This document shows positions 1 through 5,196 of a DNA stretch of 5,196 nt, piece by piece. The notes below the pieces were generated by a model. That model ran no database searches. It was given only the letters and a program-made list of their open reading frames with translations, and was not told the origin of the DNA. The stretch is from NCBI RefSeq assembly GCF_003334335.1, contig NZ_QOWQ01000077.1; one strand, given 5' to 3'. Source of the DNA: Escherichia coli (GTDB taxonomy: Bacteria; Pseudomonadota; Gammaproteobacteria; Enterobacterales; Enterobacteriaceae). Position 1 is the first letter of the stretch; each line of letters opens with the position of its first letter. The position numbers were made by a program, and so were the translations under genes.

Positions 1-167
1 AAGCGTGTCTGGATGCTGTTCTGGAGTTCTTCTGCGAGTTCGTGCAGCTTCTCACACATGGTAGCCTGTTCGTCAGCATCGAGGGCGTCCAGCTTTTCGA
101 GCAGCGTCAGGCTTTGGCTTTTTATGAATCCTGCCATGTTGAGTACGGCTTGCTGCTGCTTGTTCAT
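1..167 (-). CDS. rom: Rom/Rop (RNA one modulator), 5-prime portion; the gene wraps the window boundary of the circular plasmid (start codon at 167, stop at 5092..5094)
   Basis: Reverse-complement translation from ATG (complement of 165..167) gives MNKQQQAVLNMAGFIKSQSLTLLEKLDALDADEQATMCEKLHELAEELQNSIQTR..., continuing across the junction to ...FEVENSTER* (64 aa). This matches the recalled ColE1/pBR322 Rop (63 aa; ...ALNMARFIRSQTLTLLEKLNELDADEQADICESLHDHADELY...). An in-frame stop lies 14 codons upstream of the ATG and a GGAG lies 11 nt upstream. Confidence 0.85.
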   Translation of the reverse strand, partial: MNKQQQAVLNMAGFIKSQSLTLLEKLDALDADEQATMCEKLHELAEELQNSIQTR

Positions 168-204
168 CTTTTCGTTTTCTCCGTTCTGTCTGTCATCTGC
201 GTTG

Positions 205-245
205 TGTGATTATATCGCGTACCACTTTTCGACTGTTTTACCGCC
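205..245 (-). promoter_or_regulatory. Putative rom promoter
   Basis: A perfect TATAAT on the - strand (complement of 209..214) lies about 45 nt upstream of the rom start. The -35 element is weak (AACAGT-like). Position is consistent with a rom promoter but is untested. Confidence 0.35.
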
Positions 246-299
246 GGTATTCTGCCGTCTGACGCTTTGACGGGTATTTCTGCCTGACAATACTGTCAC

Positions 300-420
300 T
301 GCCAAAAAACTGCCGTGCCTTTGTCGGTAATTCGAACTTGCTGACAGGACAGGATGTGTAATTGTTATACCGCGCATACATGCACGCTATTACAATTACC
401 CTGGTCAGGGCTTTGCCCCG
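300..420. other. bom/oriT-like region (basis of mobility)
   Basis: Lies between rom and the mbeC-like gene as in ColE1/pBR322. The segment gggctttgccccgacaccc (401..419) resembles the recalled pBR322 bom sequence ggctgcgccccgacacccgcc. An imperfect inverted repeat lies adjacent (358..399). The nic position is not determined. Confidence 0.5.
358..399. repeat. Imperfect inverted repeat (12-bp arms, 11/12 match, 18-bp spacer) within the oriT-like region
   Basis: Left arm gtaattgttata (358..369); right arm tattacaattac (388..399), whose reverse complement is gtaattgtaata. Read directly from the sequence. Confidence 0.6.
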
Positions 421-426
421 ACACCC

Positions 427-774
427 ATGTCAGATACGGAGCCATGTTTTATGACAAAACGAAGTGGAAGTAATACGCGCAGGCGGGCTATCAGTCGCCC
501 TGTTCGTCTGACGGCAGAAGAAGACCAGGAAATCAGAAAAAGGGCTGCTGAATGCGGCAAGACCGTTTCCGGTTTTTTACGGGCGGCAGCTCTCGGTAAG
601 AAAGTTAACTCACTGACTGATGATCGGGTACTGAAAGAAGTTATGAGACTGGGGGCGTTACAGAAAAAACTCTTTATCGACGGCAAGCGTGTCGGGGACA
701 GGGAGTATGCGGAGGTGCTGATCGCTATTACGGAGTATCACCGTGCCCTGTTATCCAGGCTTATGGCAGATTAG
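427..774 (+). CDS. MbeC/MobC-like mobilization accessory protein (ribbon-helix-helix nicking accessory factor)
   Basis: ORF of 115 aa immediately downstream of the bom/oriT-like sequence. The N-terminal region has the pattern RPVRLTAEEDQEIRKRAAECGKTVSGFLRAAAL, typical of RHH mobilization accessory proteins. A more likely start is the in-frame ATG at 451 (107 aa), which has GGAG at 438..441, 9 nt upstream. The C-terminal half does not show the motif I expect for the relaxase-interacting domain, so the family assignment is tentative. Confidence 0.6.
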   Translation: MSDTEPCFMTKRSGSNTRRRAISRPVRLTAEEDQEIRKRAAECGKTVSGFLRAAALGKKVNSLTDDRVLKEVMRLGALQKKLFIDGKRVGDREYAEVLIAITEYHRALLSRLMAD

Positions 775-848
775 CTTCCCGGAGAGAAAACTGTCGAAAA
801 CTGACGGTATGAACACCGTAAGCTCCCAAAGTGATCACCATTCGCTTT

Positions 849-866
849 CATGCATAGCTATGCAGC
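849..866. promoter_or_regulatory. Putative ArgR (ARG box) site within the cer accessory region
   Basis: Palindrome tgcatagctatgca (851..864) fits the TGnAT...ATnCA ARG-box half-site symmetry and sits about 110 bp upstream of the crossover core, where ArgR binds in ColE1 cer. Confidence 0.45.
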
Positions 867-964
867 GAGCTGAAAACGATCCTGACGCATCCTTCCTGTT
901 TTTCCGGGGTAAAACATCTCTTTTTGCGGTGTCTGCGTCAGAATCGCGTTCAGCGCGTTTCAGT

Positions 965-994
965 GGTGCGTACAATTAAGGGATTATGGTAAAT
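965..994. other. XerC/XerD recombination core site of cer
   Basis: ggtgcgtacaa (965..975), ttaaggga (976..983), ttatggtaaat (984..994), read directly. Confidence 0.85.
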
Positions 995-997
995 CCC

Positions 998-1426
998 TTA
1001 CTGTCTGCCCTCGTATCCATCGAGATAAACCGCAGAAATGGTGTCTGCCATTAGTTTCATTTTTTTCGGCGAAGGCATATCGCTGTTTGTGTATTTTCTG
1101 CCAGCAAAGGTTGTTGTGCTCCGGAGTGAGTGAAAAAATTTTTCTGAGTGGAATTCTTTTACACGTTGCTGTGCCGTTTCTGCTGATACTCCGGCTGCTT
1201 TGTCTTTCATCCCCATATCCCGGAACTGCTGAAAGAACGGGAGCATCATACGTATGGTGTCTGCTTTCTGGGTGTAGAAGTTAGGATCAAATCCATCATC
1301 TGAAGCATAAACATAATGCCGGGTATGTCGTTCCAGGCTGGTCTTTGGTGTGCATCCTGTAAGAGCTATTGTTGCTGTTATCAGAGGTATCAGAAGCAGC
1401 CTGGCAGCGGCAGATCTCATAAACAT
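998..1426 (-). CDS. Hypothetical lipoprotein (142 aa), function unknown
   Basis: The N-terminus MFMRSAAARLLLIPLITATIALTGC has a positively charged n-region, a hydrophobic core and an LTGC lipobox, indicating a signal peptidase II substrate. The mature part is hydrophilic. I recognise no family. The stop codon lies 3 bp from the cer XerD arm. Confidence 0.6.
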   Translation of the reverse strand: MFMRSAAARLLLIPLITATIALTGCTPKTSLERHTRHYVYASDDGFDPNFYTQKADTIRMMLPFFQQFRDMGMKDKAAGVSAETAQQRVKEFHSEKFFHSLRSTTTFAGRKYTNSDMPSPKKMKLMADTISAVYLDGYEGRQ

Positions 1427-1541
1427 CTCCTTGCGTTTTTAATCTTGATACTCAGGGAGTTATATCTCCGAAGAGTATCTCTTATCATACGTCGGTTTAC
1501 TCCCAATGTGATTTGATGGTCAATGAGTCAGGAATAATCCC

Positions 1542-1820
1542 GTGAAAAAATGTGTGCCAGTCCTGCTTTTTAGTGTTCTTTCTGCTTCGGTTGCCAGTCA
1601 TGCGGACAGCAATGTTTTTCAACAAAAGGCCGAGAAGACAAAAAACGGCATTGTTGCGGATGTTAATGCCAGACAGAAAATGTTCAGTAACAGACTGAAG
1701 ATACAACTTCAGATCGATGAGTTGAGAGCAGAGCTGGCTGGCACCAGAGATGCCCAAAAAAGAGAGGATTTGCGTAAAAAACTGGAGTCTCTGGAGCGGC
1801 AAAAGAAATCCTTACGCTGA
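1542..1820 (+). CDS. Hypothetical secreted or periplasmic small protein (92 aa), charged and probably helical
   Basis: GTG start with AGGA about 7 nt upstream. Signal peptide MKKCVPVLLFSVLSASVASHA with an AxA-like cleavage site (SHA|D). The mature ~71 aa are K/E/R/Q-rich with heptad-like spacing (QLQIDELRAELAGTRDAQKREDLRKKLESLERQKK). Divergently arranged with the lipoprotein gene across a 115-bp intergenic region. Confidence 0.5.
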   Translation: MKKCVPVLLFSVLSASVASHADSNVFQQKAEKTKNGIVADVNARQKMFSNRLKIQLQIDELRAELAGTRDAQKREDLRKKLESLERQKKSLR

Positions 1821-2129
1821 TGGGGGCGTATTTTCCCCGGTTTCTTCCATAACCTTTTTACCGTTCAGATATTTACGGGCGAGGCGAATGCGTCTTGCCT
1901 GGTATACCGCCGAGTAAGCCTGGGTGGGATTCACACCATTACTGATTTCACTGACCACATGACGCTGATCTGCCAGTGTCAGCGTGTAAACCTGTTTCTG
2001 GATGAGGTCACGGGCTTTGTCATGCTCATATCCGGCAGCAACAAGGGTGTCGAGAAGTCGTTTGTCTGTTTTGTTCAGTTTATGGCGGGGTGATTTGCTC
2101 ACATCGTTCTCCGTTTTTTCATGATCCAA
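1812..2129 (-). CDS. Hypothetical basic protein (105 aa), putative DNA-binding (HTH-like)
   Basis: ORF convergent with the 1542..1820 gene (9-bp overlap) and divergent from the colicin promoter. The segment DKRLLDTLVAAGYEHDKARDLIQ looks like a helix-turn-helix. An alternative start is GTG at 2102, preceded by GGAG. No family recognised. Confidence 0.45.
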   Translation of the reverse strand: MDHEKTENDVSKSPRHKLNKTDKRLLDTLVAAGYEHDKARDLIQKQVYTLTLADQRHVVSEISNGVNPTQAYSAVYQARRIRLARKYLNGKKVMEETGENTPPSA

Positions 2130-2199
2130 CAGTTTTATATCTCATCCTGATTTGCTCCGGTGTTCTGTTTCGACGTTCTCAATGCCTGCCTCCCCATAG

Positions 2200-2216
2200 T
2201 GTGATCCTTATTGCAA
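2200..2216. promoter_or_regulatory. Possible CRP-binding half-site upstream of the colicin promoter
   Basis: tgtgatccttattgcaa has TGTGA, a 6-nt spacer, then TTGCA (3/5 match to TCACA), centred about 60 nt upstream of the predicted transcription start. Colicin E1 expression is known to be catabolite-sensitive. The match is weak. Confidence 0.25.
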
Positions 2217-2234
2217 AAATGAAAATCCATGCTC

Positions 2235-2263
2235 TTGACATGGACAATGCTGAATAGTAGGTT
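2235..2263 (+). promoter_or_regulatory. Colicin operon promoter
   Basis: Perfect -35 TTGACA at 2235..2240, a 17-bp spacer, and a -10-like TAGGTT at 2258..2263, immediately upstream of the LexA boxes. Confidence 0.55.
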
Positions 2264-2267
2264 TTTG

Positions 2268-2298
2268 CTGTACATAAAACCAGTGGTTATATGTACAG
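2268..2298. promoter_or_regulatory. Tandem overlapping LexA (SOS) boxes
   Basis: CTGTACATAAAACCAG (2268..2283) overlaps a second box read on the bottom strand, CTGTACATATAACCAC (2283..2298). This dual-box arrangement is characteristic of colicin promoters and nearly identical to the recalled colicin E1 operator. Confidence 0.85.
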
Positions 2299-2346
2299 TA
2301 TGTTGTTTTTAATTTATTGTTTTAATTATCAAAGAGGAATTTCTTT

Positions 2347-3819
2347 ATGGATAAAGTCACTGATAATTCTCCAGATGTGGAGAGCACAGAATCTACTGAG
2401 GGGTCATTCCCAACTGTTGGGGTTGATACTGGCGATACGATTACAGCGACGCTTGCAACTGGAACTGAAAATGTTGGTGGAGGCGGTGGAGCATTTGGTG
2501 GGGCCAGTGAAAGTTCTGCTGCGATACATGCAACCGCTAAATGGTCTACCGCGCAGTTGAAAAAACATCAGGCTGAACAGGCTGCCCGTGCTGCTGCGGC
2601 TGAGGCAGCATTGGCAAAAGCGAAATCTCAGCGTGATGCCCTGACTCAACGTCTCAAGGATATTGTTAATGACGCTTTACGTGCTAATGCCGCTCGTAGT
2701 CCATCAGTAACTGACCTTGCTCATGCCAATAATATGGCAATGCAGGCAGAGGCTGAGCGTTTGCGCCTTGCGAAGGCAGAGCAAAAAGCCCGTGAAGAAG
2801 CTGAAGCAGCAGAAAAAGCGCTCCGGGAAGCAGAACGCCAACGTGATGAGATTGCCCGCCAACAGGCTGAAACCGCGCATTTGTTAGCAATGGCGGAGGC
2901 AGCAGAGGCTGAGAAAAATCGACAGGATTCTCTTGATGAAGAGCATCGGGCTGTGGAAGTGGCAGAGAAGAAGCTGGCTGAGGCTAAAGCTGAACTGGCG
3001 AAGGCCGAAAGCGATGTACAGAGTAAGCAAGCGATTGTTTCCAGAGTTGCAGGGGAGCTTGAAAACGCTCAAAAAAGTGTTGATGTGAAGGTTACTGGAT
3101 TTCCTGGATGGCGTGATGTTCAGAAAAAACTGGAGAGACAATTGCAGGATAAGAAGAATGAATATTCGTCAGTGACGAATGCTCTTAATTCTGCGGTTAG
3201 CATTAGAGATGCTAAAAAAACAGATGTTCAGAATGCTGAGATAAAATTAAAAGAAGCTAAGGATGCTCTTGAGAAGAGTCAGGTAAAAGACTCTGTTGAT
3301 ACTATGGTTGGGTTTTATCAATATATAACCGAACAATATGGGGAAAAATATTCCAGAATAGCTCAGGATTTAGCTGAAAAGGCGAAGGGTAGTAAATTTA
3401 GTAGTGTTGATGAAGCTCTTGCTGCATTTGAAAAGTATAAAAATGTACTGGATAAGAAAATCAGTAAGGTTGATCGGGATGCTATTTTTAATGCGTTAGA
3501 GTCTGTTAATTATGATGAGTTATCTAAGAATTTAACGAAGATATCAAAGTCGCTTAAAATCACTAGTCGAGTATCTTTTCTATATGATGTTGGTTCTGAT
3601 TTTAAAAATGCAATAGAAACTGGTAACTGGCGACCTTTGTTTGTCACGCTGGAGAAAAGTGCGGTCGATGTAGGTGTGGCAAAAATTGTGGCATTAATGT
3701 TTAGTTTTATTGTTGGTGTGCCTCTTGGTTTCTGGGGGATTGCAATTGTCACAGGTATTGTTTCTTCTTACATAGGGGATGATGAGTTGAACAAACTTAA
3801 TGAGTTGTTAGGGATTTAA
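2347..3819 (+). CDS. cta: Pore-forming colicin, colicin E1 family (490 aa); best recalled match is colicin 10
   Basis: AGAGGA lies 9 nt upstream of the ATG. Residues ~55-130 ([29 protein letters not shown]...[16 protein letters not shown]...[31 protein letters not shown]) and the C-terminal channel domain (YGEKYS...[28 protein letters not shown]...LKIT..VSF.YDV.SD...TG.W.PLF.TLEK.A.D.GV...VAL.FS...[15 protein letters not shown]....LN..NE.LGI) closely parallel the recalled colicin E1 sequence. The N-terminal ~50 aa and the central region differ. The 490-aa length, the 96-aa immunity protein and the 43-aa lysis protein fit my recollection of colicin 10, but colicin 5 or a close relative cannot be excluded without a search. 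Confidence 0.85.
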
Positions 3820-4106
3820 TTTCTCTTTAGAGTGTAATATATGAAACTTGGCAATCCTACTGGGATTGCCATTAATAAATAAAACAATGCAGATAACTTG
3901 CATAAGTACCAGGGTTCTTTTTTTAACTTTGTATTTTCTTTGATATATCTAGATATGGTTAATTTAGAGTATGGATATAGCAATACATGTATTGATGATA
4001 TAAATATAAATAACAAAGGAGTGTTATCATTGTCGTTAAATATTAAAATAAGAATCCATGGTATAAGTGATTCAGGTAAATTATGTAGGTAGTATTTTAA
4101 ATGCAT
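3816..4106 (-). CDS. cti: Pore-forming colicin immunity protein, E1 type (96 aa, integral membrane)
   Basis: Convergent with the colicin gene; the two stop codons overlap at 3816..3819. The protein is very hydrophobic and AT-rich in codon usage, with about three predicted transmembrane segments. Motifs [15 protein letters not shown] and [14 protein letters not shown] resemble the recalled colicin E1 immunity protein (...CPYSKYAIEHIF..., ...LAIPFGLLGLVY...). Confidence 0.8.
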
Positions 4107-4135
4107 AAGTATTTTTACTTTTGTTGGAAAGAAAT

Positions 4136-4267
4136 ATGAAAATAATAATTTTTCTAATTACAATATTATTCTTGTCAGGATGTCAAGCAAACTATATTCG
4201 TGATGTGCAAGGAGGAACCGTTGCACCATCTTCGTCTTCTGAACTGACGGGGATCGCGGTTCAGTAG
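4136..4267 (+). CDS. ctl: Colicin lysis (release) lipoprotein, 43 aa
   Basis: Not in the supplied ORF track (too short). Hand translation gives [43 protein letters not shown], with GGAAAG 5-10 nt upstream of the ATG. Signal peptide plus LSGC lipobox and a short mature peptide are typical of colicin lysis proteins. It sits downstream of the immunity gene on the colicin strand, as kil does in ColE1. Confidence 0.8.
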
Positions 4268-4275
4268 AAAAGATC

Positions 4276-4302
4276 AAAGGATCTTCTTGAGATCCTTTTT
4301 TT
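4276..4302 (+). terminator. Rho-independent terminator of the colicin-lysis operon
   Basis: Hairpin aaaggatct / agatccttt with a 5-nt loop, followed by a T7 run (4295..4302), immediately after the lysis gene stop. Confidence 0.65.
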
Positions 4303-4316
4303 CTGCGCGTAATCTG
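4287..4316 (+). promoter_or_regulatory. RNA II (replication primer) promoter
   Basis: -35 TTGAGA (4287..4292), 17-bp spacer, -10 TAATCT (4310..4315). The segment tcttgagatcctttttttctgcgcgtaatctgctgc is essentially identical to the recalled pMB1/ColE1 sequence upstream of the RNA II start. Confidence 0.65.
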
Positions 4317-4321
4317 CTGCC

Positions 4322-4429
4322 TGTAAACGAAAAAACCGCCTGGGGAGGCGGTTTAGTCGAAGGTTAAGTCAGTTGGGGACTGCTTAACCGGGTAACTGGC
4401 TTTAGTGGAGCACAGATACCAAATGCTGT
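4322..4429 (-). ncRNA. RNA I antisense copy-number control RNA (about 108 nt)
   Basis: The 5-prime end ACAGCAUUUGGUAUCUGUGCUCC... is the complement of 4429 downward and is homologous to the pMB1 RNA I start ACAGUAUUUGGUAUCUGCGCUCUG. The 3-prime end is the hairpin plus U-run complementary to aaaaaaccgcctggggaggcggttt at 4327..4351. Confidence 0.75.
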
Positions 4430-4865
4430 CCTTCCAGTGTAGCCGCTATAAGGCTTCAACTTCAAGAGTTCTGCGTATCTAAATCCACTATCCAGTTACC
4501 AATGGCTGCTGCCAGTGGCGTTAAGTCGTGTCTTACCGGGTTGGACTCAAGACGATAGTTACCGGATAAGGCGCAGCGGTCGGGCTGAACGGGGGGTTCG
4601 TGCACACAGCCCAGCTTGGAGCGAACGACCTACACCGAACTGAGATACCAACAGCGTGAGCTATGAGAAAGCGCCACGCTTCCCGAAGGGAGAAAGGCGG
4701 ACAGGTATCCGGTAAGCGGCAGGGTCGGAACAGGAGAGCGCACGAGGGAGCTTCCGGGGGGAAACGCCTGGTATCTTTATAGTCCTGTCGGGTTTCGCCA
4801 CCTCTGGCTTGAGCGTCGATTTTTGTGATGCTCGTCAGGGGGGCGGAGCCTATGGAAAAACGCCT
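4323..4865 (+). ncRNA. RNA II pre-primer of the ColE1-type origin
   Basis: Starts at gtaaacgaaaaaacc..., homologous to the pMB1 RNA II start gcaaacaaaaaaacc.... The 5-prime ~110 nt are diverged from pMB1, then the sequence is near-identical to pBR322/pUC from about 4500 onward (ccagtggctgctgccagtggcg.taagtcgtgtcttaccgggttggactcaagacgatagttaccggataaggcgcagcggtcgggctgaacggggggttcgtgcacacagcccagcttggagcgaacgacctacaccgaactgagatacc...). The 3-prime end is approximate. Confidence 0.8.
4437..4465 (-). promoter_or_regulatory. RNA I promoter
   Basis: On the - strand: -35 TTGAAG (complement of 4460..4465), 17-bp spacer, -10 CTACAC (complement of 4437..4442), 7 nt before the RNA I start. Same architecture as the recalled pMB1 RNA I promoter. 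Confidence 0.6.
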
Positions 4866-4870
4866 GCGGC
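4850..4870 (+). other. Origin of replication (RNA II to DNA transition point, oriV)
   Basis: ggcggagcctatggaaaaacgcc is identical to the pBR322 sequence surrounding the mapped leading-strand start. The downstream 4900..5036 (tcacatgttctttcc...gcggaagagcgcc) is near-identical to the pBR322 region carrying the primosome assembly site. Confidence 0.7.
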
Positions 4871-5091
4871 GCGGGCTTCTTCCGGTGCTTTGCTTTTTGC
4901 TCACATGTTCTTTCCGGCTTTATCCCCTGATTCTGTGGATAACCGTATTACTGCTTTTGAGTGAGCTGACACCGCTCGCCGCAGTCGAACGTCCGAGCGT
5001 AGCGAGTCAGTGAGCGAGGAAGCGGAAGAGCGCCTTATGTGACATTTTCTCCTTACGCTCTGTTGTGCCGTTCGGCATCCTGTCCTGAGCG

Positions 5092-5196
5092 TTATCTCTC
5101 TGTGCTATTTTCTACTTCAAAGCGTGTCTGGATGCTGTTCTGGAGTTCTTCTGCGAGTTCGTGCAGCTTCTCACACATGGTAGCCTGTTCGTCAGC
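5092..5196 (-). CDS. rom: Rom/Rop, 3-prime portion (stop at 5092..5094); continues as feature 1..167 across the circular junction
   Basis: Same reading frame as feature 1..167; reverse-complement translation ends ...QTRFEVENSTER*. Positions 5120..5196 duplicate 1..77. Confidence 0.85.
   Translation of the reverse strand, partial: ADEQATMCEKLHELAEELQNSIQTRFEVENSTER
5120..5196. repeat. Terminal 77-bp exact duplicate of window positions 1..77 (circular-plasmid linearisation overlap, not a biological repeat)
   Basis: aagcgtgtctggatgctgttctggagttcttctgcgagttcgtgcagcttctcacacatggtagcctgttcgtcagc occurs at 1..77 and 5120..5196. Implied unit length is 5,119 bp. Confidence 0.9.

Follow-up and report, generated by a model that had tools for sequence, protein, structure and literature searches.

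The working of the replicon considered here is established for ColE1 and pMB1. By analogy with these plasmids, the primer precursor RNAII would be transcribed toward the origin, where it would form a persistent hybrid whose cleavage by RNase H would prime DNA synthesis; the antisense RNAI would meet the 5′ part of RNAII by loop-loop “kissing” contacts, and the hybrid would be blocked. Rom (Rop), by homology a small helical dimer, would bind and stabilise the transient RNAI-RNAII kissing complex; once stabilised in this way, the complex would make RNAI a better inhibitor of primer formation, leading to a lower copy number. According to the textbook view, what Rom recognises in the kissing complex is its shape and not its sequence. 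In the pBR322 layout, rom follows the origin and is convergent with RNAII. The known role of a cer core is the resolution of multimers to monomers.

A group of small ColE1-like plasmids bearing nikA has also been described; these plasmids have 20-bp inverted repeats in their oriT and no homologue of the NikB relaxase, and are thought to borrow the relaxase of I-complex conjugative plasmids in trans (PMC9282650). The window, i.e., the whole 5,196-nt stretch of DNA analysed here, combines features of both systems, which are collected in Table 1. It is almost certainly one linearised 5,119-bp circular ColE1-type colicin 5 plasmid, written with a 77-base overlap at its ends and cut within rom. The plasmid, the Rom protein, all the modules and the artefact are already known, present in public databases and well understood.

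Table 1. Features of the 5,196-nt window; positions are those of the linear record.
Feature	Coordinates	Strand	Basis
rom 5′ part, nt 1-167 (codons 1-55 and two bases of codon 56)	1..167	-	Circular ORF scan, Pfam, PDB
Antisense 85-aa shadow ORF	13..270	+	Linear ORF list; on the circle 116 aa from GTG 5039
oriT-type inverted repeat with 20-nt arms, upstream of nikA/mobA	358..399	+	Arms 358-377 and 380-399, 85% complementary
mobA/nikA, 107-aa ribbon-helix-helix relaxosome accessory protein	451..774	+	NCBIfam NF041264 MobA
cer core, XerC/XerD multimer resolution	965..994	+	Exact match to GGTGCGTACAA-TTAAGGGA-TTATGGTAAAT
Exc2-family lipoprotein gene	998..1426	-	NCBIfam NF033828, E 3.8e-53
Colicin 5 structural gene, pore-forming, 490 aa	2347..3819	+	Exact sequence named colicin 5 / Colicin-5 CE05_ECOLX
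Colicin 5/K-type immunity gene, 96 aa	3816..4106	-	Exact sequence named colicin K immunity protein; Pfam CKI
Colicin release (lysis) lipoprotein gene, 43 aa	4136..4267	+	Exact sequence named colicin release lysis protein
Putative RNAII primer precursor and origin	4325..4890, approximate	+	Placed from RNAI position and strand and from ColE1 geometry
RNAI antisense copy-number control RNA	4327..4427	-	Rfam RF00106, 77.4 bits (gathering score 47), E 1.4e-13
rom 3′ part, nt 168-195 including the stop	5092..5119	-	Circular ORF scan
Redundant copy of bases 1-77	5120..5196		Exact direct repeat; from a circle written as a line

The two ends of the window are the same sequence. A repeat search of the window found bases 1-77 and 5120-5196 to be 100% identical (77/77 bases), with a start-to-start spacing of 5119, and no other long repeats; the probability of such a match for a random 77-mer is ~4e-47. 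In a direct test on the window, 77 was also the longest exact prefix equal to a suffix, and the unit is therefore 5,119 bp, present in 1.015 copies and accompanied by no foreign sequence. The terminal duplication described in the first-pass annotation is thus exact at all 77 positions and maximal at this length. Runs of MEGAHIT and SPAdes use 77 as a standard value of k, and adjacent contigs in de Bruijn graphs share an overlap of k (PMC9104695). Since graph contigs overlap by k, a self-closing contig ends with a k-long copy of its own start, and the 77-base overlap is probably the k-mer signature of a circular de Bruijn-graph path with k = 77; in the literature on the assembler overlap convention, an explicit statement on self-overlapping circular contigs was not found. 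The second copy is most likely a terminal overlap rather than a biological repeat, and is to be trimmed.

Two finished plasmids carry the same unit. When the plasmid collection was searched with the unit by megablast, two records were returned with 100% coverage and 99.9% identity: CP125069.1 (pKFS-B24_5, from faecal sludge in Uganda) and NZ_CP049851.1 (pEcoUTI1a, from a Mexican bladder biopsy isolate), both from E. coli, circular, complete and 5,119 bp long. They have length, circularity and gene order in common with the window, the segment 5041-5196 of which is contiguous in both, and an intact 195-nt rom CDS is annotated in each; after rotation, they differ from the window only by five (CP125069.1) and four (NZ_CP049851.1) substitutions, with no indels, and by the position and strand chosen to begin the record. 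For practical purposes, the window represents one more isolate of the pKFS-B24_5/pEcoUTI1a plasmid. Comparison of these sequences argues for circular closure of the 5,119-bp unit, and the proposal that coordinates be read modulo 5,119 agrees with two finished records of this length that are collinear with the window across the junction.

For ORF calling, the 77 redundant bases were trimmed, as had been proposed in the first-pass annotation, and the 5,119-bp unit was doubled. Two ORFs were found to cross the junction, one of 64 aa on the minus strand and one of 116 aa on the plus strand. The first runs from 167 to 5092 (195 nt) and codes for MNKQQQAVLNMAGFIKSQSLTLLEKLDALDADEQATMCEKLHELAEELQNSIQTRFEVENSTER; on the circle, rom is complement(join(5092..5119,1..167)), with an ATG that is the complement of 165-167 and a TAA stop that is the complement of 5092-5094, so that position 5092, at which the earlier feature had been started, is the first base of the TTA. 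The opening point falls inside codon 56 (Phe). The 5′ copy contains rom nt 1-167 and the 3′ copy nt 91-195, neither end containing both start and stop, and 5092..5119 is contiguous with 5120-5196 (equal to 1-77) in the window and in the loci L001 and L002. No minus-strand ORF over 1-167 or 5092-5196 is present in the linear ORF list, because the tool omits ORFs that run off an end. Rom is thus invisible to a linear scan and appears once the unit is circularised, as had been claimed; the accompanying claim, that a circular molecule had been opened inside rom, is borne out by the wrapped full-length Rop together with the two 5,119-bp circular records.

The identity of the wrapped ORF is supported at several levels. 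It matches the whole Pfam Rop model (PF01815, 1-57 of 57, E 5e-31, 106.8 bits) and the Rop chains of the PDB (1rop, E 5e-17); its product is identical to that of the 195-nt CDS of CP125069.1 and NZ_CP049851.1, annotated as “Rop family plasmid primer RNA-binding protein”, and the exact sequence is found in at least 1000 contigs of the protein collection under the same Rop-family name. Thus the family model of ColE1/pMB1 Rop is covered fully and the solved 63-aa Rop aligns over residues 1-57, whereas the protein encoded here has 64 aa and its C-terminal tail after residue 56 (EVENSTER) is unrelated to that of the 1rop-type Rop (GDDGENL). Homology to the solved Rop would imply a helix-turn-helix monomer and an antiparallel four-helix-bundle dimer. 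In the alignment with the Rop chain, Lys3, Asn10, Phe14, Gln18 and Lys25 are all unchanged; these are the residues that we take, from the mutagenesis literature, to contact RNA. The helices differ by many substitutions from the pMB1-like 63-aa Rop of locus L003: 41 of the 57 codons are changed, 18 synonymously and 23 non-synonymously, a pattern that fits purifying selection in the rom frame. A simple scan of the intact copy in L001 and of the whole window revealed no promoter-like site for rom, an absence of consensus that is uninformative. Located on the minus strand with its end at 5092, the gene follows the origin and is convergent with RNAII, a position that it has in common with the gene for ColE1/pMB1 Rop.

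Contigs encoding an identical colicin were looked up, and apparent multimers or cointegrates of this and related plasmids, which may be real or concatemers of the assembly, were found among them. The metagenomic contig L025 (ENA ERZ1024489 NODE_1_length_12317, positions 1-12317) contains a head-to-tail pair of perfectly identical 5,119-bp copies and, after them, a pCRP3-like plasmid with the same backbone; the copies differ from the window by 13 substitutions, and the joint, at unit position 994, coincides with the point where the cer core ends. This contig could be a true heteromultimer or a concatemer made during assembly. In L018 (ENA ERZ1310506 NODE_1170_length_22622, positions 7133-12739), a 22.6-kb metagenome contig, 5.6 kb comprise unit 1418-5119 followed by 1-1906, i.e., more than one unit, with 1418-1906 at both ends; the flanks carry Tn3-family transposase/resolvase genes and Fic/Phd genes, and the insert could be an integrated or cointegrated copy or belong to a chimeric contig. 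Three tandem copies of a related 6,822-bp colicin 5 plasmid are present in L017 (a GCA_974498795.1 contig of 20,459 bp). AP027214.1 (15,094 bp, deposited as “plasmid”) links a colicin 5 plasmid with one of the colicin D type and contains two Rop/MobC backbones; L020 covers the first 13,789 bp of this record. In the sampled cells, the form could also be a multimer or cointegrate instead of the monomer.

These public examples (L025, L017, AP027214.1 and L018) give some ground to the possibility, raised already in the first-pass annotation as a tandem repeat within a larger replicon, that the window represents part of a tandem multimer or of a larger cointegrate which happened to be broken 77 bases past the start of the following copy. 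The window itself gives no support to it, as it contains little more than one copy, with no foreign DNA; that a random break should match a standard assembly k-mer length would be a coincidence, two independent finished records close the identical unit order as a 5,119-bp circle, and the plasmid carries an exact cer core, the known role of which is multimer resolution. This reading is very unlikely and was set aside, also considering that the unit is unaffected by it: even as a multimer, the unit, the modulo-5,119 coordinates and an intact rom all hold. Exact direct terminal repeats also mark some linear phage genomes, and the 77-bp repeat could in principle be a true terminal repeat of a linear molecule, phage-like or a linear plasmid; yet no phage or linear-replicon genes are present among the identified genes of the window, and the parts identified (RNAI, rom, cer, nikA/oriT and the colicin operon) are all of the ColE1-type circular kind. 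A terminal repeat located inside rom would moreover leave the linear molecule without any intact copy of the gene, and the same sequence is deposited as circular in CP125069.1 and NZ_CP049851.1. A linear molecule with true terminal repeats was rejected on the gene content and on the circular database records, and its probability is very small.

A different objection concerns the strand opposite rom, where, as the first-pass annotation had stated, the linear track lists an 85-aa ORF. This plus-strand frame is longer than rom on the circle and is the one reported by the linear scan, so that it might be taken as the real gene and the minus-strand reading as incidental. Its product, however, has no family match in the NCBIfam scan and is rich in Ser, Cys, Phe and Leu, a composition that suggests a non-coding frame; no annotation of it is found in CP125069.1 or NZ_CP049851.1, and the minus-strand frame is a full-length Rop at the E-value given above. 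Opposite the diverged rom of L003, the same plus-strand frame contains two stop codons, and therefore 13..270 is regarded as a shadow ORF. The antisense 85/116-aa ORF was excluded as a gene by the absent family match together with these stops, and we give practically no credence to the reverse assignment. The preferred reading is thus a 5,119-bp circle opened within a genuine rom. For the record, this means that the 77 bases need to be trimmed and the molecule treated as circular before annotation, a point that is practical and not scientific; annotation of the untreated linear record overlooks the real 64-aa regulator Rom and lists a spurious antisense ORF instead.

The rest of the replicon is consistent with the ColE1 model. 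The minimum-free-energy fold of RNAI has three stem-loops (z = -5.8), and a terminator scan of the whole window located a terminator-like hairpin of this RNA at 4354..4333 on the minus strand. By analogy, RNAII would start opposite the 3′ end of RNAI, with the origin ~555 nt downstream. No Rep-family match was found by NCBIfam among the ten ORFs. The replicon is predicted to be a ColE1-type RNA-primed theta replicon, in which RNAI, with its three stem-loops, lies opposite the 5′ end of RNAII. Inside the RNAII/origin region, a 47-aa ORF (4462-4605, minus strand) is called “replication initiation protein” in both database records; it has no NCBIfam match, and the annotation is probably spurious.

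The mobilisation module resembles that of the nikA-bearing plasmids. The product of 451..774 scored 113 bits against the NF041264 MobA model (cut-off 80), the exact protein is named MobA or nikA protein, and Pfam assigns identical genes as NikA-like. No relaxase gene was found on the plasmid, either in the linear and circular ORF lists or in the NCBIfam scan. The database records are typed by PLSDB/MOB-suite as “mobilizable; relaxase MOBF”, despite the relaxase-less module. As to the cer core, the number of chance matches expected is 0; the ColE1 cer reference sequence is tabulated in PMC2410131.

The cargo of the plasmid is the colicin 5 operon. The NCBIfam library, searched with the ten ORFs, returned no matches for the Rop, colicin, immunity and lysis families, because it names such proteins by other rules; these genes were therefore named via Pfam, PDB and exact-sequence names, Pfam assigning Colicin to a gene identical to 2347..3819 and Lysis_col to one identical to 4136..4267. 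Directly upstream of the colicin 5 gene, at 2268-2298, there is a near-perfect palindrome, CTGTACATAAAACCA/TGGTTATATGTACAG, presumably similar to the overlapping LexA (SOS) boxes that colicin promoters typically carry. The terminator scan of the whole window also placed a terminator-like hairpin at 4276-4298, after the lysis gene. Two small convergent and overlapping ORFs were also observed, 1542-1820 (plus strand, 92 aa) and 1812-2129 (minus strand, 105 aa, given as 96 aa in the records); neither has a family match, the N-terminus of the 92-aa product is signal-peptide-like, and both are found alongside exc2 and the colicin gene, in larger contigs as well as in colicin 5, 10 and K plasmids.

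Comparison by module revealed two overlapping stretches of identity with different relatives. From 943 to ~4780 the plasmid is essentially identical to the 6,822-bp colicin 5 plasmids, with no mismatches in 4178-4777; between ~4580 and ~960, across the junction, the backbone of pSS046_spB and pCRP3 is matched almost perfectly, with 0-1 mismatch per 100 nt. These two stretches place the crossovers in the 3′ half of the origin region and at cer. Overall, window 943-5063 is 99.1% identical to the 6,822-bp plasmids (e.g., NZ_CP010159.1), a segment that comprises exc2, the two small ORFs, the colicin 5 operon, RNAI and most of the origin; where the plasmid studied here has the nikA module, those plasmids have MobC/MbeA/MbeB/MbeD genes, and their Rop is a different one, of 63 aa. 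With the nikA-bearing ColE1-like plasmids of the pCERC7 group, reportedly the subject of work by Moran and Hall in 2017, and including pU302S, NTP16, pCRP3 and pSS046_spB, the rom-oriT-nikA-cer segment (~1.07 kb) is 99.7-100% identical. The plasmid studied here has in common with this group the absence of a relaxase, the 20-nt oriT inverted repeat and a variable cargo that directly adjoins the cer core, and differs from it in that the cargo is the colicin 5 operon with exc2, and that RNAI, together with 5′ RNAII, belongs to another lineage.

The plasmid is, on these identities, a mosaic: colicin 5 cargo, RNAI and 5′ RNAII would derive from the 6,822-bp MbeA-type lineage, and the relaxase-less nikA backbone would have supplied the segment that extends from the 3′ origin over rom, oriT and nikA as far as cer. 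The match to pSS046_spB, as well as that to the pCRP3-like portion of L025, stops at ~960-994, where the cer core lies, and the breakpoint with respect to the colicin 5/10/K plasmids is at 943-991, just upstream of or within it, which suggests that cargo is exchanged at or beside cer.

As a consequence of the mosaic structure, one RNAI region occurs with two Rom proteins, of 64 and 63 aa, a finding that agrees with the view that Rom recognises shape and not sequence. It is also conceivable, but we consider it unlikely, that the plasmid is a natural hybrid with a distinct interaction, in which RNAI/RNAII of the colicin 5 lineage, usually found with a 63-aa pMB1-like Rop, have been brought together with the nikA backbone's diverged 64-aa Rom; exchanges at cer and inside the origin would have produced such a hybrid. 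Should Rom interact differently with RNAI-RNAII in it, the result would be a distinct copy number or compatibility behaviour, and the hybrid would represent a natural test of the sequence-independence of Rom action.
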